A DNA stretch of 64,000 nt from an uncultured Candidatus Saccharibacteria bacterium. Its GTDB lineage: Bacteria; Patescibacteriota; Minisyncoccia; Phycocordibacterales; CALRHW01. Of this stretch, positions 7,199 through 18,025 are shown in pieces (positions within the stretch are counted from its first letter, which is position 1; every line of letters begins with the position of its first letter). The stretch spans positions 96,227 through 160,226 of the forward strand of contig CAYOUG010000001.1 in NCBI GenBank assembly GCA_964407105.1. The letters are read 5' to 3'. The notes beneath the pieces are model-generated. The model saw only the letters and a program-made list of their open reading frames with translations. It ran no database searches and was not told where the DNA came from. Made by a program: the position numbers and the translations under genes.

Positions 7199-7271
7199 GC
7201 ACGTGTAGCTCAGTTGGTAGAGCGGTCGTCTTATACACGACTGGTCCCAGGTTCGAGTCCTGGCACGTGCA
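7199..7271 (+). tRNA. tRNA with anticodon UAU (isoleucine, AUA-decoding); CCA not encoded
   Basis: I folded it by hand. The acceptor GCACGTG/CACGTGC has 7 bp, the D-stem is GCTC/GAGC, and the anticodon stem is GTCGT/ACGAC with loop CTTATAC. The variable region is 5 nt. The T-stem is CCAGG/CCTGG with loop TTCGAGT, and the discriminator is A. Confidence 0.75.
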
Positions 7272-7401
7272 CAATGAGCAGGGCGAATTGTGCACGTGAG
7301 CAAGTGCCCAATGGCACTTGCGAACAGGACGAGAAAGGCTTTTCGTTATCGAGAGAGCGTACTCGCTTTCGAGATCGAAAAGTACCCGCGGCGGTAGCCG
7401 A

Positions 7402-7509: not shown

Positions 7510-9459
7510 TTAACTTGAGTGCTCTATATCCAGTTTGTTTTTTAGTGTAATTCCATTCGCAACAATAATCTGCTCGTATTCTGCACGTTCGATAGATTCG
7601 ACTTCAATAAGTCGCTTTGCAATAATATCAAGAAGTTTTCGATGTTTTGTAATAATTTCCTCGGTCTTCTGATACGCCTCTTTCATAATTTTTGAAACTT
7701 CGGCATCAATCATTGCGCTCACATGCTCTGAATATTCTTTATCTTCTACGCCACGACCAAAAAGTGGACGTCCACCAGAACCCTCAAGAGCAATGGGGCC
7801 AACTGTTTCAGACATTCCATATTTAGTCACCATATCTCGAGCAAGTGCCGTTGAAACCTGAAGGTCGTTTGAAGAACCAGTCGTAAAATCACCAAAAATA
7901 TTTTTCTCTACAACATATCCACCAAGTGACACCGCAATATCATCAAGAAATTCTTTTTTCGATTGCATTTTTTTGTCTTCAATCGGTAATTTGAGTGTGT
8001 AGCCAGCCGCACGTCCTCGAGAAATGATAGAAATTTTATGTACTGGATCAGCATACGGAAGAACTGAAGCAACGAGGGCATGACCCGCTTCATGATACGC
8101 AGTAATTTCTTTTTCTTTTTTAGAAAGAATATGACTACGACGCTCAGGACCAAGCATCACTTTTTCAATAGAACGAATAAGGTCGTACTGCGATACTGTT
8201 GTGCGATTTTCTCGCGCCGCCAAAATAGCACCTTCGTTCATAAGTGAATATAAATCTGCTCCAGAAAATCCTGGCGTACGCTCTGCGATCACAGACAAAT
8301 CCACATCTTCAGCAAAAGGTTTTTCTTTTGAATGAATTTCCAAAATTTCTTCACGATCTTTTCTGTCTGGAAAATCAAGAGTAACACGACGATCAAAACG
8401 GCCTGGACGCAAAAGTGCGGGATCGAGCACGTCTGGTCTGTTTGTAGCAGCCATTACAATCACTTTTTCGTTGGGCTCAAAACCGTCCATTTCTACAAGT
8501 ATTTGATTGAGTGTTTGTTCTCGCTCATCATTTCCCCCACCAGCACCAACCCCTCGCACACGTCCCACCGCATCTATTTCATCAACAAAAATAATTGCTG
8601 GAGCATTTTGTTTTGCTACCTTAAAAAGATCTCGTACACGCGAAGCTCCAACACCCACAAACATTTCCACAAACTCTGATCCCGAAATAGAGAAAAACGC
8701 AACACCAGCTTCACCTGCAACAGCACGCGCAAGGAGTGTCTTTCCGGTACCCGGAGCGCCCATGAGCAAAATACCTTTTGGAATACGCGCACCAATATCC
8801 AAAAACTTTTTTGGATTACGCAAAAAATCCACAATTTCAACAAGTTCTACTTTTGCTTCTTTTACACCAGCCACATCTTTAAATGTTACGCGTTGTTTTT
8901 TATCGTCAGGAGAAATCATGCGCGCTTTTGATTGACCAAAAGTAAAAGCTTGCATACCTGCACCCTTTACCTGTCTTGTCATAAACCACAAAAATCCAAG
9001 AATAAACAAAATCGGCAAAATAATTGGCGCGAGATTAAACGCCCAATACCAAAAACCACTCTGACTCTTTATTTCAATATTTACTCCAGCGAGTTTTTCT
9101 GGAGAAACACCATAGTTGGTGAGAGTTTCAGAAAGTGCAGCGTCATCTTCTTTTGAAGAAAATTTTTCTTCGCCACTCACATAAGTAATATCTAGAGAAC
9201 CGCTTTTTACAACAATACCAGATACCTTTCCAGCATTAATGTCTTTTGAAAGTTCGGTGAGAGAAATTGTGGTTGTATCTTTTTTTTGTCCAGAAAGTAA
9301 TCCGTAAAGACCAATTACCAAGAAAAAAATAAGAAAAGCGGTAAGAATGTGTCTTAAAATTCGTCCTCCACCCTCGGGAGCCGATGCATTCTTTTTTTGT
9401 GGTGCTTTTTTAAGCACAAATCGTACACGTTTTTTATCCTTTGAATTAAATAGTTTCAT
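7510..9459 (-). CDS. ftsH: ATP-dependent zinc metalloprotease FtsH
   Basis: It has an N-terminal TM region, Walker A '[19 protein letters not shown]', SRH '[19 protein letters not shown]' and the zinc motif 'HEAGHAL'. The start was chosen at MKLFNS. Confidence 0.95.
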
Positions 9460-9802
9460 GGGTGGATTATACAATATATTTGAATTTAGCAATAGAAAAA
9501 ACCGCCCTGTGTGATGGGCGGGGGTTAGAGGTAGGCTCCAAACCATGACTTGGACAAGAGCGATCTGCTCTTTTTGTTTGTCCTTCTAACAAACAAACGG
9601 TGTGGAGCACGAAAACGAAAAAACATTTGATCGACAGCTCGATACAACTGAACTGTCGTCAACAAAAACAGGAAAAAAAGTGCCAACAAATAGTAAACCA
9701 ACAAACAAACCTCCTTTTGAACGATTTGCGATATTATCACAAAAAAAGGCATTTTTGGCAATGGTATTATCAAACAAAAGCTAAATTTGGTATAGTACAA
9801 TC

Positions 9803-10246
9803 ATGAGTTTAATCAGAAACAAAAAAGCTTCATTTGATTATGAAATCAGCGAAAAATTCACTGCCGGTATGGAGCTTTTTGGTTTTGAAGTAAAATCCTT
9901 GCGCGCCGGACAAGGTGCACTTGAAGGATCATACGTTACTGTGCGTGGTGGCGAAGCATATATTATCGGCATGCACATTCCCCCATTTCAACCCAAAAAT
10001 ACTCCAGATGATTATGATCCGCTACGCAATCGTCGACTTCTCCTAACAAAAAAAGAGCTTGAAACCCTCGCTGAAACAGAAAAAAAGAATGGTTTGACAA
10101 TAGTACCGATTTCAGTGTATAATAGCAAACGCAAGCTAAAAATAGAGCTTGGTATAGCACGCGGAAAAAAGAAATTTGATAAACGTGAAACGATTAAAAA
10201 ACGTGACACTGAGCGTGAGATACGACGAACATTGAAAAACATTTGA
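9803..10246 (+). CDS. smpB: SsrA-binding protein SmpB
   Basis: The protein reads 'KKASFDYEI...GFEVKSLRAG...YIIGMHIPPFQ' and has a basic C-terminal tail. Confidence 0.9.
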   Translation: MSLIRNKKASFDYEISEKFTAGMELFGFEVKSLRAGQGALEGSYVTVRGGEAYIIGMHIPPFQPKNTPDDYDPLRNRRLLLTKKELETLAETEKKNGLTIVPISVYNSKRKLKIELGIARGKKKFDKRETIKKRDTEREIRRTLKNI

Positions 10247-10255
10247 TTTACATAC

Positions 10256-10660
10256 GGGGATGATCGGCCTAGACAGGATATCAAATCATATATGTGCAAC
10301 GTAGAGCTTGAATACCTCTTAAAACTTTTCAAAATTCTAAGTGCAAACAACTTAGTTACAAAAGCAAAGTCAGTTGTCTCTCCATATTTTGGAGCAAAGG
10401 ATTTTACTTTCGCTTACGCAATAGCCTAAGCGACGTCACGTGAGCTGTTGTTCGATTGGCTCATTGTGGTGTTATATCATCGAAATAGAATGTGTGGTGT
10501 TTCGACACACATTTGAAATTAATTGAAAATAGGAGTGTGGCGGTTTTGTCTGTTTCATACGCCCCATTCCGAAATCGCCGTTAGGCGAAGAAACTTTCTA
10601 CACGTTGTAGACTCATATGTGATCATGTTCTGCACGGCGGTTCGATTCCGCCCATCTCCA
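10256..10660 (+). ncRNA. ssrA: tmRNA (ssrA); resume codon GCA at 10343; tag reading frame 10343..10429, encoding ANNLVTKAKSVVSPYFGAKDFTFAYAIA
   Basis: The 5' end is GGGGAUGAUCGGCCUAGACAGGAU. The 3' T-arm is GGCGG-UUCGAUU-CCGCC, and the acceptor 3' strand CAUCUCC plus A pairs with the 5' end, including the G3:U70 alanine identity pair. 'UAAGUGCAAACAAC' resembles the E. coli resume context, and the frame ends at UAA. The gene lies immediately downstream of smpB. Confidence 0.8.
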
Positions 10661-11264
10661 CTAGACACGAATTTTGAGCCTCTGGGAGGGTAAATACTCT
10701 TAGGGGTAGCGACAGAATAGCGGTTTCAAACCCGCTATTTTTGTTGTATGCCAACAGTTCCTGAAATACAAGCCTTAAAACCAGTCTTTTTTGGTGAATA
10801 TTACCTTTTTTCCATTTATCTAAAGGGTTCTTCAGAAAATCAAAAACAATATCTAATGCGGTTTCAATGTTTGGTTTGAGTGAATCAAAAGACACGATAG
10901 AACTTTTTAAAACCATTTCTTTTTCTGCGATCTCACTCAATCGTTTCTCATAAACAGTCACCACGTTATCATCCACAGCTCTTGTAAGCCTTCCTAGCAA
11001 TCGGTTACGCTCGATTTCGAGTTCCGCCAACTCATCAAAAATTTGTCTTTTCTTGGCGGCAATTCCTTTCTCTTTACTTTGCCAAACATCTTCAACAATT
11101 TTCTTTGTAAGACTTAATACCGTCTTGCTTGGTTTAATTCTCCATAAGATATCTAAAAACTTCTTTTCCATTACATCTCTATGAATACTTTTATTTCTCT
11201 GGCTACAGCCAGTTTGATTACATCGAAAGTAGGGCTTTTTATGCCTCAATAGCACTATAACCAA
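10623..11264 (-). pseudogene. large serine recombinase, C-terminal fragment only (zinc ribbon, coiled-coil and C-terminal subdomain); the catalytic resolvase domain is missing
   Basis: 'LLRHKKPYFRCNQTGCSQRNKSIHRDVMEKKFLDIL' resembles the LSR zinc-ribbon region. 'KRQIFDELAELEIERNRLLGRLTRA' is coiled-coil, and 'KRLVLRLVFQELLAY' resembles the LSR C-terminus. The frame has no upstream ATG or catalytic domain. Its last 13 codons overlap the tmRNA 3' end. Confidence 0.5.
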
Positions 11265-11329
11265 TTTTCCTTCCTGAATTTTCTCTATACCCCCCTCATT
11301 GTTTGATAAGAATCAATTAGGGAAAAATG

Positions 11330-12148
11330 TTACTCACAGTATTGAATAATTTGATAATTAGTTGTTGTGAGCTGAGCATCCAGCGCATTCATCACACCTT
11401 GATAACGATCATTTTCGTTTTGGATTTCCGTCTCTAATACGCCACCGAACGTCCCCCCAGAATTTTGTTGAATCTGTGAAAGTTTGACGTTATGTTCAGT
11501 TAATGCCGCTTCTTTTTGTTGAGCTATGGACACGGCTTTTGATTTTGATTCTGCACACCAATCTTCCTCTATCGCAGGAACAGAAATACTTTCTGCTTCT
11601 TTTTTTACAAGAATAGGACAACCAATATCCTTATTGTAAGCATCAACTTTTCTAACAACACTTACTAAGATATTTTTTTGCCCAACGTCGTGTATAGAAA
11701 ATACCGCTTTATTGTTATCAATTTGATTTGTGAGATATTTTTTATCCCATTTAATTTCATAATTGGAAATATCATCGAATGGTATGTATATCTCCGCTTT
11801 TACCGAATCTCCATTAAACATTTCGTTTTTTGAAAGATTACATTGAGCAGTAAAGTCTTTTGGCATTGTAGGCGTTGGTTTTATTGGCTGAACAATTTTT
11901 GATGTAGGTATACTTGTTCCGTGTGATTCATTCACTGTTGGAGCCACAACTTCTTGTGTGGTTTTACTTTCACTTTCAAGTTTTTTTTCAAGTTCTTGTA
12001 TTCTATTTTCTAGTATATGAGTCTCGGTATCGTTTTTGTGGAAATTCCAGCTATCAAACCAAGATAAAGGATTCCACCAAGCGGCAGAGACCACTTGTGG
12101 GACTAGAATTGTAACCAGTAATAACATAACAAAGATTATTTTTTTCAT
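11330..12148 (-). CDS. secreted hypothetical protein with a signal peptide and a coiled-coil
   Basis: The signal peptide is 'MKKIIFVMLLLVTILVPQVVSA'. I recognised no domain. Confidence 0.5.
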   Translation of the reverse strand: MKKIIFVMLLLVTILVPQVVSAAWWNPLSWFDSWNFHKNDTETHILENRIQELEKKLESESKTTQEVVAPTVNESHGTSIPTSKIVQPIKPTPTMPKDFTAQCNLSKNEMFNGDSVKAEIYIPFDDISNYEIKWDKKYLTNQIDNNKAVFSIHDVGQKNILVSVVRKVDAYNKDIGCPILVKKEAESISVPAIEEDWCAESKSKAVSIAQQKEAALTEHNVKLSQIQQNSGGTFGGVLETEIQNENDRYQGVMNALDAQLTTTNYQIIQYCE

Positions 12149-12169
12149 ATAATAAGAATTGAATAATGA

Positions 12170-12565
12170 TTATAACCAACTATCGACTCCACCATGATGT
12201 GAACACGTTCCTTTTCTAGATTGACTAAAACTGTAAGTGTCGTCTCGACATCTAGCAGAAGCTCCTATTGGAATAGAATTATCTTGTGTATATGTTGGAG
12301 AATGCACCGAGTTACCGTAAGTATTGGTGTAGTAATTATCATTTGATAGCTCGGGGGTTTTTTGGGAAGTTGGTACTACTTTCTGAACGGTGTTTTGTGC
12401 ATTGACTTGGAACTGACTTGCAGGAGCTACTACTTGTGTCCCCTGAGTATATTGATTTGTGTTGTCACCCTGAAGACCACCCATACCCATCACGGCAACT
12501 GCTGCAACAGAAGCTAATATGTAGCGTTTCTTCTTATACCAAGGACGAGGGCTGTTTGGGTTCAT
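12170..12565 (-). CDS. membrane-anchored DUF3761-like protein
   Basis: It has an N-terminal TM anchor and the C-terminal 'CRDDTYSFSQSRKGTCSHHGGVDSWL', which matches the DUF3761 signature (CSHHGGV..W). Confidence 0.55.
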   Translation of the reverse strand: MNPNSPRPWYKKKRYILASVAAVAVMGMGGLQGDNTNQYTQGTQVVAPASQFQVNAQNTVQKVVPTSQKTPELSNDNYYTNTYGNSVHSPTYTQDNSIPIGASARCRDDTYSFSQSRKGTCSHHGGVDSWL

Positions 12566-12633
12566 ATACTTGAAGACTACACCCTTTCCTATCCTAATTC
12601 AATTCCCATAATGTGATTACAAAGTCCACCAAT

Positions 12634-12670
12634 AAAAAAACCGCACCCTAAGCTTACGCTACAGGTGCGG
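12634..12670 (-). terminator. rho-independent terminator for the 12704..13417 gene
   Basis: On the minus strand CCGCACC...GGTGCGG is followed by T7. Confidence 0.6.
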
Positions 12671-12703
12671 AGGTTCATTCACATCAACTTGTCAACTCCG
12701 TGT

Positions 12704-13417
12704 TCACCGACGACGTCTATATGTGAACATTCCAAGAACAAACAAACCGAGTGCTGATGGACCAGGAACTGTCGAACCGACTGAATCGATCCAGACTTCA
12801 CCTGACCCCATATTGAAATTTACAAAACCGATCGTATCAAAACCCGTAAACGATGGACCCCCATAGAAAGCGATCCAACTGGTCCAGGAGCCTTCATTCA
12901 ATCTGTATCGAGCCGATGCGTCTTGAGAACGCCACTCGATAGTGACGAGGTTCCAGATGTTGTCGGTATAGTCATCGAAACCAACATAAACATCCAGAAC
13001 AGGGTCAATGTAGGCGACCTGACCGCTTTTCATGAACGCCAAAGTCGCTCTCGACGGACCGTCCCACGAATCCTGAAAGAGACCGAGCTGAAAATTCTCG
13101 CCGATGCTGTAGTCTCCCCATTCAGAGTGGTTCACTGTCCGAACGTAAAACGACTGACTCCCATCTGCCAGTGAAACATCACCAGTCTTGGTAATGACAC
13201 TGTCGGCAAATTGATTGCTGCTTCCGATGGCTTCAGTCCCATCAATGCCGATGCCGTCCTGAACCAACCAGGTTTCACCATTGGCCCGATCGAACCAGTC
13301 TCCCTGCCCCACTACTGGTCCACTGACGTAGGAATTGAAATTATCCACGACAATGGAAGCTTGAGCATTCGTAGCCAAAAGAAAAAGCCACATAACGACA
13401 ATCACAATCATTTTCAT
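12704..13417 (-). CDS. secreted protein with a C-terminal PEP-CTERM-like sorting signal, in a GC-rich gene
   Basis: The signal peptide is 'MKMIVIVVMWLFLLATNAQA'. The extreme C-terminus 'VPGPSALGLFVLGMFTYRRRR*' has a Pro-rich motif, a hydrophobic helix and an Arg cluster. GC is visibly higher than in the flanks. Confidence 0.5.
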   Translation of the reverse strand: MKMIVIVVMWLFLLATNAQASIVVDNFNSYVSGPVVGQGDWFDRANGETWLVQDGIGIDGTEAIGSSNQFADSVITKTGDVSLADGSQSFYVRTVNHSEWGDYSIGENFQLGLFQDSWDGPSRATLAFMKSGQVAYIDPVLDVYVGFDDYTDNIWNLVTIEWRSQDASARYRLNEGSWTSWIAFYGGPSFTGFDTIGFVNFNMGSGEVWIDSVGSTVPGPSALGLFVLGMFTYRRRR

Positions 13418-13513
13418 TACAATTCTCCTATTTGAAGGTGCTTGAAAAAACCCATATCACTATACAATAAATCAATAACTAGTCAATGACACCTGGTTGA
13501 AAGTTCTTCTGTA

Positions 13514-13906
13514 TTAAATCTTCACAGCAATACTGCTTTCTTCAATCAAATAAGATTTGAAGATTTTGTAAGCTATCAACGTATTAAATATTACGAAAAG
13601 AACATACCATTGTTGACCAAGAATAATAAAATTATAGATAGAAATCAGTAAAACAATACTCGTGATAGTCAAAGCGGCCCCTTTCTTAGCCTTAAATTTA
13701 TTTGAATACAAGACTGCGGCAAAATAAATAGCCAATATACTTAGAATTGATCCGATTAACGAGTAGTTAGATGAAACCATCTCAATTCTTTCAGAAATCA
13801 CGGTGAGTATAACAACCGCTACATACTGAAACAATATTATCATTCCCATTACAATAATCACTGTTACCCAGATTGGTAAAACCTTTTTATAATCACCTCG
13901 GTTCAT
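13514..13906 (-). CDS. multi-pass membrane protein with about 4 TM helices, hypothetical
   Basis: Hydrophobic segments run through the whole protein. Confidence 0.45.
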   Translation of the reverse strand: MNRGDYKKVLPIWVTVIIVMGMIILFQYVAVVILTVISERIEMVSSNYSLIGSILSILAIYFAAVLYSNKFKAKKGAALTITSIVLLISIYNFIILGQQWYVLFVIFNTLIAYKIFKSYLIEESSIAVKI

Positions 13907-14102
13907 ATATACACTAATTTAACTCCAAACACTGTAATAAGTCCAATATTATTCAATTCCCTTCATGTGATCCAAAATATATTTGCACCCAAGGAAATAT
14001 TAAGTTTTCTTAAGTTATACAACCCCTAAAATCGCTTCAGACGACTCGAAAACCCAAGAATGTAGTTGGTTCCAATTTTCACTCACTAAGTCCACATCAA
14101 AT

Positions 14103-14130
14103 ACAAAAACCGTCCTTACTGGGCGGTTTT
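14103..14130 (-). terminator. rho-independent terminator after the beta-lactamase-like gene
   Basis: ACCGTCC-TTACT-GGGCGGT is flanked by A and T runs. Confidence 0.6.
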
Positions 14131-14133
14131 TGT

Positions 14134-15117
14134 TTACTTATTTTGTTTTTCCACTTCTGTGTACACAATACGTGACACTTCTGATATCACTTCAAGAAGA
14201 GAATCAAAACTGCTACCCCGAGTCATCACACAAAGCAAGTAAGGATCTTTTGGAAAATAGACAATACCGCAGTCGTGAAGTTGTTTAAGATTTTCTCCCT
14301 CAACAATATGCTCACCAAACTTGTGAGCCACCAACACATCAGATGGTACACCTCGCACCAAACCATCTTTAAAGTCAGTTTGAGAAAGTAAAGACAGAGC
14401 GGCATCAGAAAATGGCTTTTCTAAATAAGATGCATTGTAGAGAATTCTGAAAAAAGAACTGTAATCTTTTGCACTCATAAAATCTACATCATCATTTCTC
14501 ACCTGAAAACCAAGATCCTTATAAACTTCTATCGTATGATCAGGGCCTATTTTTTTAGATAGTAAAAGGGCTGCATCATTATCAGAATATATAATCATAC
14601 GTTCTGCCAACTCTCTCAAAGTATATTGTGAACCAACCTGTATACGTTCTTTGGGTGGAAAATTGAGGTCGTATTTAATATCAGAACCAGAAAACTCAAT
14701 AGTCTCTTCTGAAAATTTTGATCTCTCCTCTACCAACTGAAGAAAAGAAATAAGTAATGGAACCTTGAGCATGCTTGATGGCAAAAATTCTTCGCGCTCA
14801 TCAATACCAAACCATGGACCGTTATTGAGATTTCGATAATACACAGCTATATCAGAAACTTTTCCTTGTTGTTTTGTGGAATCAACATAATTTTGAACAG
14901 CGGGCTTAAAATTACTTGTGTTGTGTTGCAACATCTCACCCTGATCACACTGAAGTAATGGGTTTATAAACTTATATTGATTGTCTAATTCATGGGTCTC
15001 ATTGAAATCATCACTAATTCCTGAAACCGGTCTATAAATATGAGAATATGATAGAAACCCAGCAACAAAGGAGAGGGCAAAGAAAACACAAACAAAGACT
15101 CTCTTACACATTTTCAT
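14134..15117 (-). CDS. class A beta-lactamase-related serine hydrolase
   Basis: The SxxK motif is 'SSMLKV'. The SDN loop 'YSDNDAALLLSKKIGPD' parallels TEM 'MSDNTAANLLLTTIGGP'. The KTG position is degenerate ('KFG'). The N-terminus is a signal or TM segment. Confidence 0.55.
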   Translation of the reverse strand: MKMCKRVFVCVFFALSFVAGFLSYSHIYRPVSGISDDFNETHELDNQYKFINPLLQCDQGEMLQHNTSNFKPAVQNYVDSTKQQGKVSDIAVYYRNLNNGPWFGIDEREEFLPSSMLKVPLLISFLQLVEERSKFSEETIEFSGSDIKYDLNFPPKERIQVGSQYTLRELAERMIIYSDNDAALLLSKKIGPDHTIEVYKDLGFQVRNDDVDFMSAKDYSSFFRILYNASYLEKPFSDAALSLLSQTDFKDGLVRGVPSDVLVAHKFGEHIVEGENLKQLHDCGIVYFPKDPYLLCVMTRGSSFDSLLEVISEVSRIVYTEVEKQNK

Positions 15118-15162
15118 GTAGACTTACTATAACTCCAACGTACAAAAAAGCAACGAGTGTTT

Positions 15163-15729
15163 TTAATACTTTCTAACCACACCTTTTACTACAGCCGCAA
15201 TACGAAAACTTTCGCGTGGATATATCGGTTTATAATTTTTATTAGCGGGTTCGAGCCATATTTTTCCAGCCTTAATACGATAAAATTTCATTGTCCACCC
15301 ACCATCTACTTCTGCAATGACAATATCGCCGTCGCGCGCATATTCACGTTTCTCCGCAACCACCATGTCTCCTTCTCGTATTCCCTCTTCTATCATTGAG
15401 TCTCCCTTTACTTCAAGTAAATATGTATTACCTTGATCTTCAATAAGTAACTCATCGAGACTCAATGTATCGAGTGCTTCTGCTTCTGCAACAGAAGGAA
15501 TACCAGCTTCCACCAAACCAAGGACAGGAACTTGGTCAAACATATGCTTTGGAATAATTTTTCCACGGTCGTCTTTTTCAACAACACCTGCGTCGACAAG
15601 TTTGTTGATGAGCTTATAAACAGCATTTTTAGATTTGAAACCAACAAGAGACATGATCTCTTGATAGCTCGGCATACGCCGATGTTTTTTATAAAATGCT
15701 GTAATTTTTTGGAAATACTCCTCTTGCAT
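15163..15729 (-). CDS. lexA: LexA repressor
   Basis: It has an N-terminal wHTH, the cleavage-site region 'VEAGIPSVAEA', and the S24 Ser/Lys dyad ('KGDSM' ... 'MKFYRIK'). Confidence 0.9.
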   Translation of the reverse strand: MQEEYFQKITAFYKKHRRMPSYQEIMSLVGFKSKNAVYKLINKLVDAGVVEKDDRGKIIPKHMFDQVPVLGLVEAGIPSVAEAEALDTLSLDELLIEDQGNTYLLEVKGDSMIEEGIREGDMVVAEKREYARDGDIVIAEVDGGWTMKFYRIKAGKIWLEPANKNYKPIYPRESFRIAAVVKGVVRKY

Positions 15730-15747
15730 TAATTATGTTTTAAATCT

Positions 15748-15942
15748 TTACAAAAATGATACGAAACCAAATGATCGAGCGAGCCACGCACTGCGACGCA
15801 CCTGAGAAATCTGGCTACGAAGCTTTCTGTGTAAACGTGCTTCTTTTGCATATGATTGACCTTTTATAATCTTAAAATCTATTTGTTCGTTGAGTCTTTT
15901 AAGCTCATCGTGAATGGAATACACTAATTTGTTTTTACTCAT
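15748..15942 (-). CDS. small basic protein encoded upstream of, and presumably co-transcribed with, lexA; hypothetical
   Basis: It is 64 aa and sits between the LexA-box promoter and lexA. I recognised no family. Confidence 0.35.
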   Translation of the reverse strand: MSKNKLVYSIHDELKRLNEQIDFKIIKGQSYAKEARLHRKLRSQISQVRRSAWLARSFGFVSFL

Positions 15943-15997
15943 ATTATGGTGGGTTTAAATAAGTATTTGTTATGACCTTTGTATGTATACAGTATAG

Positions 15998-16013
15998 GTG
16001 AACTATCGTTCAC
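15998..16013. promoter_or_regulatory. LexA (SOS) box of the GAAC-N4-GTTC type inside the -35/-10 spacer of the lexA-operon promoter
   Basis: The box is GTGAACTATCGTTCAC, with perfect 6-bp arms. On the minus strand TTGACT precedes it by 1 nt and TATACT follows, 18 nt apart. A degenerate second box, CAACATATGTGC, lies near 16059-16070 on the divergent side. Confidence 0.6.
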
Positions 16014-16120
16014 TAGTCAATGTGGATAACATATCTGCAGAATAAAAATTTTTTACCGTCAACATATGTGCTAGAATATATAAATACAGGTCGATATATT
16101 ACAAGATATTTTGAATACAT

Positions 16121-16357
16121 ATGAACAACGAACACAACAACACCTGTACAACATGCACCGAAGGAAAAACATGTATAAAATGTTGTCAGTGCATACACCA
16201 CAGTATCATTCCAATATTGATGATTTTGTTTGCAACAACATTTCTACTTGGTTATCTAGGATATTTCGATATGCAAACAGTAAATACGATTTGGCCAATA
16301 CTTGTTGGTATCGCCGGCATTGCAAAACTTGGAGATCACAAATGTAAGTGTTGCTAA
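16121..16357 (+). CDS. small Cys/His-rich membrane protein, divergent from the lexA operon
   Basis: The N-terminus is 'CTTCTEGKTCIKCCQCIHH'. Two TM helices follow, and the protein ends with 'HKCKCC'. A terminator hairpin lies at 16369-16400. Confidence 0.45.
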   Translation: MNNEHNNTCTTCTEGKTCIKCCQCIHHSIIPILMILFATTFLLGYLGYFDMQTVNTIWPILVGIAGIAKLGDHKCKCC

Positions 16358-16368
16358 CTTTTTTCTCA

Positions 16369-16400
16369 AAAAACCAGTTCCTCAGTGGGCTGGTTTTTTG
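16369..16400 (+). terminator. rho-independent terminator
   Basis: AACCAG...CTGGTT is followed by T6. Confidence 0.55.
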
Positions 16401-16418
16401 CTAGACTAATATACATAC

Positions 16419-17495
16419 ATGGAAGAAAAAGTACTAAAATTTTTTACACAATCAGACACTGCGTGGGAAGCTATGCTTGAAGCTTGCGAAAAAGCTACGG
16501 TGTCCATAGATATGGAACAGTATATTTTTACCAATGACAGTATCGGCAAACGTTTTCTTGAAATTTTCATAAAAAAAAGAAAGGAGGGTGTGGCTATCAG
16601 ATTGTTGTGTGATACCGTGGGCAGTTATTATTTTTATAATTCAATAGTACCGGAAGAACTTCAGATTCTTGGCATTGAAATACGTTTTTTTAATATCATC
16701 GATCCGTGGCGTATTGGCAACTTTTTTTCTTGGTATTTTAGAGATCATAGAAAAATACTCGTGGTAGACGGTATGGTGGGTATTATTGGTGGCGTTGGTA
16801 TTCGCGAAGATATGGCTTTTTGGCGAGATACTTGTGTACAAATGAACGGTGAGGGTGCACAAGAAATGCAACACACATTCAACGATATGTGGAGACTTTC
16901 TGCGCGAAAAAATATTTTTGAACGTATCAAACAATCAAGAATTGTGACAAAAAGTAAATATGTTGTCACCAATGCCCCCTACCCTCGCCGACGTTTTTTG
17001 TATCGCCAACTTATTAATACTATTCGTGGAGCAAAAAAATCTGTATTACTCACAACGCCATATTTCGTGCCAAACCCACATCTTGTTTGGGCACTAAAAT
17101 TTGTAGCGAAACGTGGTGTCGACGTGCGCATCATTGTTCCACATACTTCGGATAATATTCTAGTAAATCGTGCTTCCCACAGTTTCTTTTTTGATTTGTT
17201 ATCGAGCGGTATACGTATTTATGAATATTCTGGAAATTTTATTCATACAAAAACAGCTATTGTAGATGGACGATGGTGTACATTTGGAAGTTTAAATTTT
17301 GATAATCTCAGTTTCACTTATAATCACGAAGCAAATATTATTTCCACAAACAATATTTTTGTAAACACACTTACAGAACATTTTGAAAATGATTTAGAAA
17401 AATGTAATGAGGTACATATTGATGATTGGATTAAACGACCTTTTTCATGGAAATTTCGAGAGTTTTTAATTCTTCCTTTTAGACGTTTTTTATAA
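16419..17495 (+). CDS. phospholipase D family protein (cardiolipin synthase-like, two HKD motifs, no TM segment)
   Basis: The first HKD motif is 'RDHRKILVVDG' and the second is 'FIHTKTAIVDGRW'. 'GSLNFDNLS' follows. Confidence 0.8.
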   Translation: MEEKVLKFFTQSDTAWEAMLEACEKATVSIDMEQYIFTNDSIGKRFLEIFIKKRKEGVAIRLLCDTVGSYYFYNSIVPEELQILGIEIRFFNIIDPWRIGNFFSWYFRDHRKILVVDGMVGIIGGVGIREDMAFWRDTCVQMNGEGAQEMQHTFNDMWRLSARKNIFERIKQSRIVTKSKYVVTNAPYPRRRFLYRQLINTIRGAKKSVLLTTPYFVPNPHLVWALKFVAKRGVDVRIIVPHTSDNILVNRASHSFFFDLLSSGIRIYEYSGNFIHTKTAIVDGRWCTFGSLNFDNLSFTYNHEANIISTNNIFVNTLTEHFENDLEKCNEVHIDDWIKRPFSWKFREFLILPFRRFL

Positions 17496-17572
17496 AAATA
17501 TAAAAAAGCCGATCGCACAAACATGCGAACGGCTTTGGGTGATGCGGAGTGTTTTTTCAATTACACCGCACC

Positions 17573-18025
17573 CTAGATTTTGTGAGGTTCGCCGTGATTG
17601 CGGCAAGGACTATGTGGTGAATGACCACCACAGTCACAGGTATTTGATCGGCCGAGATTACGACAGGAACCGAGTTTCTCACAATCACAGGTATGTGGTC
17701 GACCAAGATGTGATCCGTCTTCATGTGTCGCACCACCATGCGCGTTGTTTGCCGATGGTTGGCGACATGACAAGTCATCGAACAACGGAGTCTCTTGGAT
17801 CTCTGTGGTTGCAGCGAGTAGAGTCCCCGCCGCTTTAAATAGAGCCCGATTCAATTCTTCTGAACTCCCTTCGGCGATCTGTCTGAGTTCTTCTGGGGTG
17901 GCCCGTCTTGACGCTAGCGCCACCAAAACCCGCCTAGCAATCAATAGTCCCCAAAACGCCATCTCGCAACTCTCAGCTCTTTGCTTTGGCATTTTGTTAA
18001 GCTCAACACTATCACTACCGCCCAT
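17573..18025 (-). CDS. Cys/His-rich hypothetical protein in a GC-rich island
   Basis: AGGAGG lies 6 nt upstream of the ATG at 18025. The C-terminus is 'HTCDCEKLGSCRNLGRSNTCDCGGHSPHSPCRNHGEPH'. The region is clearly GC-richer than its neighbours. Overlapping ORFs on the opposite strand look less gene-like. Confidence 0.4.
   Translation of the reverse strand: MGGSDSVELNKMPKQRAESCEMAFWGLLIARRVLVALASRRATPEELRQIAEGSSEELNRALFKAAGTLLAATTEIQETPLFDDLSCRQPSANNAHGGATHEDGSHLGRPHTCDCEKLGSCRNLGRSNTCDCGGHSPHSPCRNHGEPHKI

Follow-up and report, generated by a model that had tools for sequence, protein, structure and literature searches.

Serine integrases that target the T-loop of transfer-messenger RNA (tmRNA) or tRNA-Ala genes are barely documented, with the islands of Dehalococcoides as the one described case, and the mobile elements of bacteria of the Candidate Phyla Radiation (CPR) are, to our knowledge, very little known. 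As described by McMurdie et al. (2011, PMC3146451), the Dehalococcoides islands at the tmRNA gene ssrA carry a CcrB-like serine recombinase of about 540 amino acids (aa), DsiB, on the reverse strand beside the attachment site attL in ssrA, together with a 20-bp repeat and an inferred insertion midway along the tmRNA T-loop. The same description has tandem islands and remnants with variable cargo piling up downstream of ssrA, and a 6-gene integration module that includes the small serine recombinase DsiA, homologues of ParB and Mom and a pseudo-tRNA (PMC3146451). According to Islander, serine-family integrases are not known to target tRNA genes (tDNAs) (PMC4383910). Here, we analysed a 64-kb stretch of DNA from a genome of the Paceibacterota (Patescibacteria/CPR), which we call the window and in which all window coordinates are counted, and focused on the region that follows ssrA. 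We conclude, with a probability of roughly 85%, that this region represents what is left, after decay, of the attL-proximal end of a small integrative element, originally of about 4-8 kb, that was driven by a large serine recombinase (LSR) and had inserted at ssrA.

The integrase fragment at ssrA and its intact relatives

The following features are central to this reading; loci of related genomes are cited here and below by their L numbers.

10256-10661 (ARAGORN) or 10256-10663 (Rfam RF00023), plus strand: intact tmRNA gene (ssrA), 117.6 bits, full model
10623-11264, minus strand: N-terminally truncated LSR, 213 codons, recognised by homology to intact LSRs
10644-10663, plus strand: tmRNA 3' end from halfway through the T-loop to the terminus, attL-side copy only; equivalent repeats in L047, L009, L018, L021 and L023
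10672-10744, plus strand: putative element-derived tmRNA 3' trailer block with two hairpins, whose antisense codes for the integrase peptide NSGFETAILSLPLRVFTLPEAQ

The tmRNA, for which ARAGORN predicts the tag peptide ANNLVTKAKSVVSPYFGAKDFTFAYAIA, is followed by a series of minus-strand genes. The open reading frame (ORF) of the fragment begins at a TTG and is preceded, 16 codons upstream, by a stop in the same frame; codon 32 is an in-frame ATG, and the NCBI-annotated form is a protein of 182 aa (P0001). Its stop codon and 12 sense codons (VEMGGIEPPCRT) span 10623-10661, giving a 39-nt overlap with the tmRNA gene in which the fragment is the antisense of the T-arm and of the 3' strand of the acceptor stem.

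When ten intact LSRs were compared with the window by tblastn, the sole match lay at 10605-11246 and corresponded to protein residues ~305-530, at 52-62% identity with the fragment and E values from 1e-60 to 1e-77; an N-terminal integrase piece was found nowhere else in the 64 kb by this search. The closest intact copies come from two metagenome loci and are 78% (L042) and 75% (L044) identical, and over about 204 residues the fragment is 52-78% identical to intact three-domain proteins, with E values down to 1e-109. In alignment A2 as well as in tblastn, it aligns with residues ~308-519 of intact LSRs of 505-526 aa and retains the second half of the zinc ribbon, the coiled-coil region, which was assigned from alignment position alone, and the tail. 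The start of the fragment falls inside the zinc ribbon (PF13408, four Cys), such that the first CxxC pair is deleted and the second is kept (YFRCNQTGC, C315 and C320 in L008 numbering), leaving two of the four Cys. Neither the resolvase catalytic domain with its nucleophilic serine (PF00239) nor the Recombinase domain (PF07508) is present. No resolvase, recombinase or zinc-ribbon match came up when the fragment itself was searched against Pfam, PHROGs, NCBIfam and PDB sequences, and such direct profile scans are uninformative because just half a zinc ribbon remains. Homology to the intact relatives therefore identifies the window ORF, at the level of sequence, as the C-terminal ~40% of an LSR: a piece of a family member, not a functional member, and probably a pseudogene. 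We also considered an SSV1-type split integrase, in which attP lies inside the gene and the two halves end up at the island ends; this was rejected, as the window holds no N-terminal half and the coding sequence has the att core at its very 3' end.

An earlier, sequence-only reading of the region had described an ORF without a catalytic domain whose last 13 codons overlap the 3' end of ssrA. The overlap proved exact, and the alignment start at residue ~308 agrees with the missing catalytic domain. The same reading had assigned the product to the zinc ribbon, coiled coil and tail of an LSR, which is correct for the C-terminal match, with half of the zinc ribbon kept; it had also looked to a direct Pfam scan for the recombinase identity, which came from the intact relatives instead. 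Its proposal that ssrA served as the integration site is borne out by related genomes, in which intact copies of the integrase hold the equivalent position, and its general idea, that an integrative element had decayed at ssrA and left cargo behind, was right in kind.

Relatives of the fragment were collected from several sources. A collection of 5.8 billion proteins contained 21 homologues from Paceibacterota-type sources (46-67% identity), several of them with PF13408, and a profile search of 1.84 billion representatives yielded 4345 matches, many of which are 514-548 aa long and matched at residues ~280-520. Scanning GTDB species genomes returned 19 loci, with homologues in the same identity range, and a metagenome scan added 31 further loci, the intact L042 and L044 among them. 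Stop-to-stop ORFs of 505-526 aa are found in eight loci (L005, L006, L008, L009, L010, L012, L013 and L014); those of L016 and L018 extend to 602 and 573 aa, as the frame there runs on without a stop beyond the target gene. All ten intact LSRs start with MQKxLIYCRVSSERQ, which places RVSS at residues 10-13. Pfam recognised Resolvase (E ~1e-24 or better), Recombinase and Zn_ribbon_recom in the proteins of L008, L010, L016, L042 and L047, with E values in intact relatives of 3e-8 to 5e-5 for the Recombinase domain and 1e-6 to 1e-9 for Zn_ribbon_recom, and the best solved-structure match of the catalytic domain was the TP901-1 integrase (E 1e-8).

In more than 25 related Paceibacterota loci the 3' end of the integrase runs antisense over the tmRNA 3' end as it does in the window, and in nearly every locus with enough sequence this overlap is accompanied by smpB on the far side of the tmRNA. 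At L016 (10508-10651), the intact integrase overlaps the 3' end of a tRNA-Ala(GGC) gene and not tmRNA, with a terminal block of identical type, which suggests a target switch between two alanine-type acceptor and T-arms. Intact elements are 4-8 kb long and have at their boundaries a 16-19-nt stretch of the tmRNA 3' end, beginning in the T-loop, as a direct repeat. At L047 the repeat is perfect (19/19 nt, antisense tmRNA 3' end TGGAGATGCTGGGAATCGA) with the copies 7.75 kb apart; the repeats of L009 (16/16 nt) and L018 (16/17 nt) are separated by 4.25 kb and 6.8 kb, respectively. Tandem degenerate copies of the tmRNA 3' end occur at L021 and L023. In L023 (9770-10300) three such copies follow each other at 200-300 nt, the middle one with an integrase tail block, and this array records successive integrations and the near-total deletion that came after them. 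Since the displaced copies in L023 part from the live tmRNA right after ATCGA in the T-loop, the crossover is placed in the T-loop, and the element accordingly supplies the 3' strand of the T-stem, the 3' strand of the acceptor stem and everything downstream. Many metagenome contigs of 3.9-5.9 kb (among L033, L041, L042, L044 and L046) end ~10-260 nt past the integrase gene; this may reflect assembly breaks at the att site, which would be expected of populations polymorphic for the element.

ORF clustering across the loci revealed a shared gene order upstream of the integrase, comprising c10 (65-72 aa, overlapping the start of the integrase), c5 (72-84 aa) and, frequently, c15, an ORF with weak similarity to DUF5681 that starts MRGGYR. 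Intact elements also encode secreted proteins, including family c14 with an ASWWNPFSW motif past the signal peptide and the Cys-rich secreted c24 genes of L010 and L014. Cargo varies strongly from element to element: L047 (1758-9515) carries a HATPase_c_3 protein, a 489-aa partner and a small-terminase-like helix-turn-helix (HTH) protein (phrog_4102, E 7e-20), and the remnant island of L001 (5600-9930) has a SMODS-domain nucleotidyltransferase gene and an HTH_17 gene. Judged by domain, the SMODS and HATPase_c_3 genes are candidate cargo of the type commonly found in anti-phage defence islands. We tentatively regard the elements as small mobilizable or satellite-like islands and not as prophages.

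The putative tmRNA trailer block and decay of the integrase

A nucleotide alignment of 22 loci revealed a block of ~75 nt just outside the tmRNA that is almost invariant, next to an upstream coding sequence that is variable. In integrase orientation its sequence is AAxAGCGGGTTTGAAACCGCTATTCTGTCGCTxCCxxTAAGGGTATTTACCCTCCCAGAGGCTCAAAAA. The block is covered by the last ~30 integrase codons, and the mean pairwise identity at third codon positions is 0.83 within it versus 0.53 in the preceding 46 codons. Read in the sense of the tmRNA, it folds into two hairpins (z -3.7), hairpin A at ~10678-10707 and a terminator hairpin with a T-run at 10714-10741 that was picked up by a terminator scan. If the block acts as the trailer and terminator of the tmRNA, as predicted from this fold, the most conserved peptide of the family, NSGFETAILSLPLRVFTLPEAQ, is simply the antisense of these two elements.

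Remnants of the integrase differ in how much of the gene is left. The remaining ORFs encode 334 aa in L001, 309 aa in L004, 240 aa in L011 and 213 aa in the window; L017, which is the closest of the remnants in GTDB species representatives, has a frameshift, and L019-L023, L057 and L058 have only the terminal block left. The fusion proteins P0013 and P0017 are truncated at different points, and in P0013 a g1-like N-terminus with a signal peptide (g1 being the first island gene of the window, see below) is fused to an integrase fragment. The dual coding of the integrase tail explains this series, in that deletions would have been tolerated as long as they spared the sequence needed to complete and terminate ssrA.

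The same series bears on the question of whether the truncated protein of 182-213 aa might be functional, for example as a dominant-negative or site-occupancy factor that blocks related elements at the tmRNA and thus provides remnant-encoded immunity. The fragment ORF is open over 642 nt with an in-frame ATG, the independently truncated copies of L001, L004 and L011 are also open, and the coiled-coil region of LSRs mediates subunit contacts that control directionality, all of which would suit such a role. On the other hand, truncation points differ in every lineage, the closest GTDB remnant is frameshifted, and the many loci with the terminal block only fit neutral decay that halts at the tmRNA terminator. 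Half a zinc ribbon with two of four Cys is unlikely to fold or to bind DNA, and we found no promoter evidence for the fragment. The ratio of non-synonymous to synonymous substitution (dN/dS) against L042 and L044 gave no information and does not discriminate, synonymous sites being saturated. We consider a functional fragment very unlikely and read the stump, apart from its tail, as most likely a pseudogene.

Island genes, island extent and proposed history

Beyond the fragment, the region and its flanks contain the following genes and sites.

11330-12148, minus strand: g1, secreted protein with an AAWWNPLSW motif past the signal peptide; no Pfam match; GC content (GC) 0.349
12170-12565, minus strand: g2, DUF3761 protein (Pfam DUF3761, E 7e-22)
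12704-13417, minus strand: g3, GC-rich gene with a PEP-CTERM-like C-terminus (VPGPSALGLFVLGMFTYRRRR); weak NCBIfam PEP-CTERM match, E 0.07
13514-13906, minus strand: g4, small multi-pass membrane protein (hydrophobicity by inspection); no significant family match; GC 0.313
14134-15117, minus strand: g5, class A beta-lactamase-related serine hydrolase (Pfam Beta-lactamase2, E 8.5e-36); GC 0.359
15163-15729, minus strand: LexA (Pfam Peptidase_S24 and LexA_DNA_bind), core host gene of the far flank
7510-9546, minus strand: FtsH, host flank
9803-10246, plus strand: SmpB (Pfam SmpB, E 4e-51)
10094-10123, plus strand: promoter-like site in the 3' part of smpB, sigma-70 match 12/12 (TTGACA, 18 nt, TATAAT)

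The g1 protein belongs to cluster c14 together with genes of L008, L014, L016 and L018 that are located 1-3 kb upstream of the intact integrase, and a weaker N-terminal match is found in L037; on this family membership, g1 is taken to be a retained element gene. By inspection, the GTCSHHGGV motif of g2 is similar to c24, the Cys-rich secreted genes found in the intact elements L010 and L014. With a GC of 0.486, g3 lies ~3 standard deviations above the window mean of 0.386 (standard deviation 0.031), and only 0.5% of 700-nt windows reach 0.49; it is the sole clear GC outlier, as g1, g2 and g4 range from 0.31 to 0.42. PEP-CTERM sorting signals go with the exosortase systems of diderm bacteria and are unexpected in Paceibacterota. 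Both its GC and its PEP-CTERM-like tail indicate that g3 is probably foreign, horizontally acquired cargo, and g2 and g4, the latter being the last gene before the conserved flank, are probably cargo as well. Terminator hairpins are predicted for g3 (~12636-12670) and g5 (14103-14133).

A 21-nt repeat is present at 12597-12617 and 13951-13971 (19/21 identical, ATTCAATTCCC.T.ATGTGAT), with its copies 30-65 nt upstream of the starts of the minus-strand genes g2 and g4, so that they bracket the GC-rich g3 together with g4. We rejected these copies as an att pair around g3-g4, given that both sit just upstream of gene starts and that the statistics are borderline; a shared promoter or operator is more likely.

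The extent of the island was addressed by comparison with L026, a close relative in which FtsH (83%), LexA (88%), SmpB (74%), g64 (80%), PLD (66%) and g5 (59%) can be matched to the window at the identities given. Its gene order is PLD-g78-...-g64-LexA-g5, then 450 nt with a 90-aa ORF, then tmRNA-SmpB-FtsH, and an integrase remnant, the terminal block and g1-g4 are all absent. As these flanks lack both the remnant and g1-g4, the window-specific insert is placed at ~10664-14100 and comprises the stump and g1-g4. In L029 (LexA 84% identical), an 8-kb polysaccharide-synthesis cluster lies between LexA and ssrA and g5 is missing there; the g64-LexA order is kept in both relatives. On these sequence comparisons g5 and LexA are conserved host flank, and a cargo status of g5 is not demonstrable. 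LexA is 64-91% identical to thousands of Paceibacterota LexA proteins of 187-188 aa, and we rejected the idea of an element-encoded CI-like repressor for this highly conserved vertical gene.

An island reaching to 15117, with g5 as a further cargo gene, would agree with the lower window-L026 identity of g5 as compared with LexA and FtsH, with the lack of g5 at the L029 position and with the terminator that g5 has of its own. Opposing this, g5 sits between LexA and ssrA in L026 without any trace of an integrase or a terminal block, its GC is typical of the window, and homologues of this hydrolase number 4033 across Patescibacteria. We therefore regard the longer island as improbable and keep the boundary near 14100. 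The sequence-only reading had counted all five downstream genes as cargo; the genes exist as it described, with hairpins following g3 and g5, and the cargo assignment stands for g1-g4, which are absent from L026 and include a gene family of intact elements, and fails for g5. It had also asked whether lexA directly follows smpB-ssrA elsewhere; this is the case in none of the relatives examined, where the small ORF and g5 (L026) or the polysaccharide cluster (L029) intervene, and lexA does not adjoin ssrA directly in the ancestral order. The second copy of the ssrA 3' end that it had suggested looking for as the far att site is not found in the window.

Taking these observations together, we propose the following history. 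An LSR would have integrated the element into the tmRNA T-loop, and the element would have brought a host-matched tmRNA 3' end with a structured trailer and an intrinsic terminator behind it, all of them coded antisense in the last ~45 integrase codons. With the 3' end and terminator borne by the element, the resulting chimeric ssrA would have been completed and terminated by element DNA after integration. A deletion may then have taken the N-terminal ~307 codons of the integrase, that is, its catalytic Ser and recombinase domains together with the zinc ribbon's first Cys pair, and the identical or a similar deletion would have removed the small core genes upstream of the integrase and joined g1 to the stump. 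Genes of the g1 type lie 1-3 kb upstream of the integrase in intact elements and g1 abuts residue ~308 in the window; one deletion of the core genes and the 5' part of the integrase is the simplest account of this junction. With the far att repeat also lost, the element would be immobile. Selection on tmRNA 3'-end formation and termination would hold the 3' ~110 nt of the stump, the remainder of the fragment would most likely be a pseudogene, and g1-g4 (11330-13906) would be cargo that was retained or accreted.

Several results weigh against this account. Probing with a 32-mer and an 18-mer at up to 3 mismatches, as well as a general repeat finder, detected no second ssrA 3' end in the 64-kb window, and a 16-mer probe of the ssrA 3' end at up to 5 mismatches gave matches at chance level only; without a far att in the window, the island boundary near 14100 depends on one close relative. 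Over its 213 codons the fragment still reads without interruption and contains an internal ATG, and its truncated product may be expressed. The live tmRNA of L023 has another hairpin terminator, so that what is required is a terminator and not the block itself, which is not universally needed and whose role as trailer and terminator is predicted from sequence. Three scans of IMG/VR viral contigs gave only unrelated LSRs at 22-24% identity and no family member, and neither an excised or circular form nor a metagenome contig with terminal overlap was found; activity of the family is suggested by the att repeats and the patchy distribution.

Finally, g2-g4 have no homologue in any of the ~50 related loci or intact elements examined, including L042 and L044, and could have arrived independently of the LSR element. 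The stump and g1 would then be the sole relics of the element, and g2-g4 the product of unrelated events in a plastic region downstream of ssrA. Such plasticity is suggested by the LexA-ssrA interval, which holds g5 only in L026 and the 8-kb polysaccharide cluster in L029, by the spread in GC between g3 (0.486) and g1 (0.349) or g4 (0.313), and by an inversion of the whole smpB-ssrA-island segment between lineages. However, the cargo of intact elements is itself highly variable (SMODS in the L001 remnant, HATPase_c_3 in L047, Cys-rich secreted proteins in L010 and L014), serial LSR insertions of the kind left as tandem arrays in L021 and L023 would look alike, and the GTCSxHGGV motif of g2 is common to element family c24. 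We judge an independent origin of g2-g4 unlikely, while giving it some weight, and take them to be probable cargo, whether retained or accreted.

Some features of the flanks deserve mention in their own right. The promoter-like site at 10094-10123 lies ~130 nt 5' of the tmRNA 5' end and, from its consensus match alone, is likely the ssrA promoter. The inverted segment comprises smpB, ssrA, the island and g78 and is turned in place between FtsH and the PLD-IF3-L35-L20 block (window 7510-17495 versus relatives): the window, L026 and L008 share one orientation, and L020, L007 and L023 have the opposite one, so that the island side faces PLD in some lineages and FtsH in others. A tRNA-Ile gene (anticodon TAT) at 7199-7272 adjoins FtsH; it is also present in 20 of the related loci scanned, near FtsH in several of them, and is a conserved neighbour in the lineage. 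A second GC-rich patch (GC ~0.51 versus 0.386) at 17500-18000, just past the PLD gene, overlaps ORFs of both strands and contains a 30-nt repeat at 17629-17658 and 17680-17709, with a spacing of 51 nt.

Meaning of the remnant and comparison with known systems

The window locus itself is ordinary, a dead island remnant, which explains the hypothetical ORF overlapping ssrA and the patch of orphan secreted-protein genes next to it. What sets the family apart is its compact design of overlapping constraints, in which the integrase coding sequence would code in antisense for the replacement tmRNA 3' end and its terminator; because the tail does so, integrase tails would persist as footprints long after the death of the element. 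It is possible, and we put it forward only tentatively, that a broad set of Paceibacterota has a host-element chimeric tmRNA whose T-stem 3' strand, acceptor 3' strand, trailer and terminator come from LSR elements with the integrase frame running antisense through all of these, that the remnant is domesticated DNA on which an essential RNA depends, and that the truncated protein might be an immunity factor. On this tentative reading the family would also be a source of at least two dozen natural serine integrases whose attB and attP sites, in an RNA gene conserved universally, could be inferred. Its intact members have recoverable att sites and are thereby candidate site-specific integration tools. 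We did not find the element family described in the literature searched.

The elements can be compared with four kinds of known systems. They are reminiscent of phage satellites resembling phage-inducible chromosomal islands (PICIs) in their small size, the integrase at one end, the small-terminase (TerS)-like HTH gene of L047, the weakly DUF5681-like c15 and cargo of defence-island type; unlike in these satellites, no capsid-remodelling or replication genes were identified in the elements, we know of no helper phage for them, and the resemblance, drawn from one profile match and size, is tentative. With the LSRs of phages and integrative and conjugative elements (TP901-1, A118, Bxb1, phiC31, and CcrB of SCCmec) the intact relatives share the succession of Resolvase, Recombinase and Zn_ribbon_recom domains. 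The targets of known LSRs are mostly protein-coding genes or intergenic sites; in this family, by contrast, the target is a tRNA-like T-arm, and the integrase coding sequence runs through attL into the target gene. As in the tDNA islands of tyrosine integrases (Williams, 'Traffic at the tmRNA gene'; Islander, PMC4383910), integration takes place in the 3' part of the tDNA, a replacement 3' fragment keeps the gene functional, a displaced fragment marks the far end (in the relatives) and the integrase gene lies beside att, but the enzyme is of the serine family. Of these island features, the window displays an integrase stump beside an intact tmRNA and a sporadic presence among relatives that share its flanks.

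The closest precedent, likened by its published description, is that of the Dehalococcoides ssrA islands with DsiB (PMC3146451). Compared with the module described there, DsiA-, ParB- or Mom-type domains were not seen in the genes upstream of the intact integrases, and within the bounded elements L009, L018 and L047 no additional tRNA-like gene was detected by ARAGORN. By the same description, those islands belong to Chloroflexota, whereas the elements reported here belong to Paceibacterota/CPR, are much smaller (4-8 kb) and have a core of two ~70-aa ORFs and a TerS-like or DUF5681-like gene. In what that account describes, both systems have in common a serine recombinase that lies antisense beside ssrA, insertion in the T-loop, tandem remnants and variable cargo (PMC3146451).

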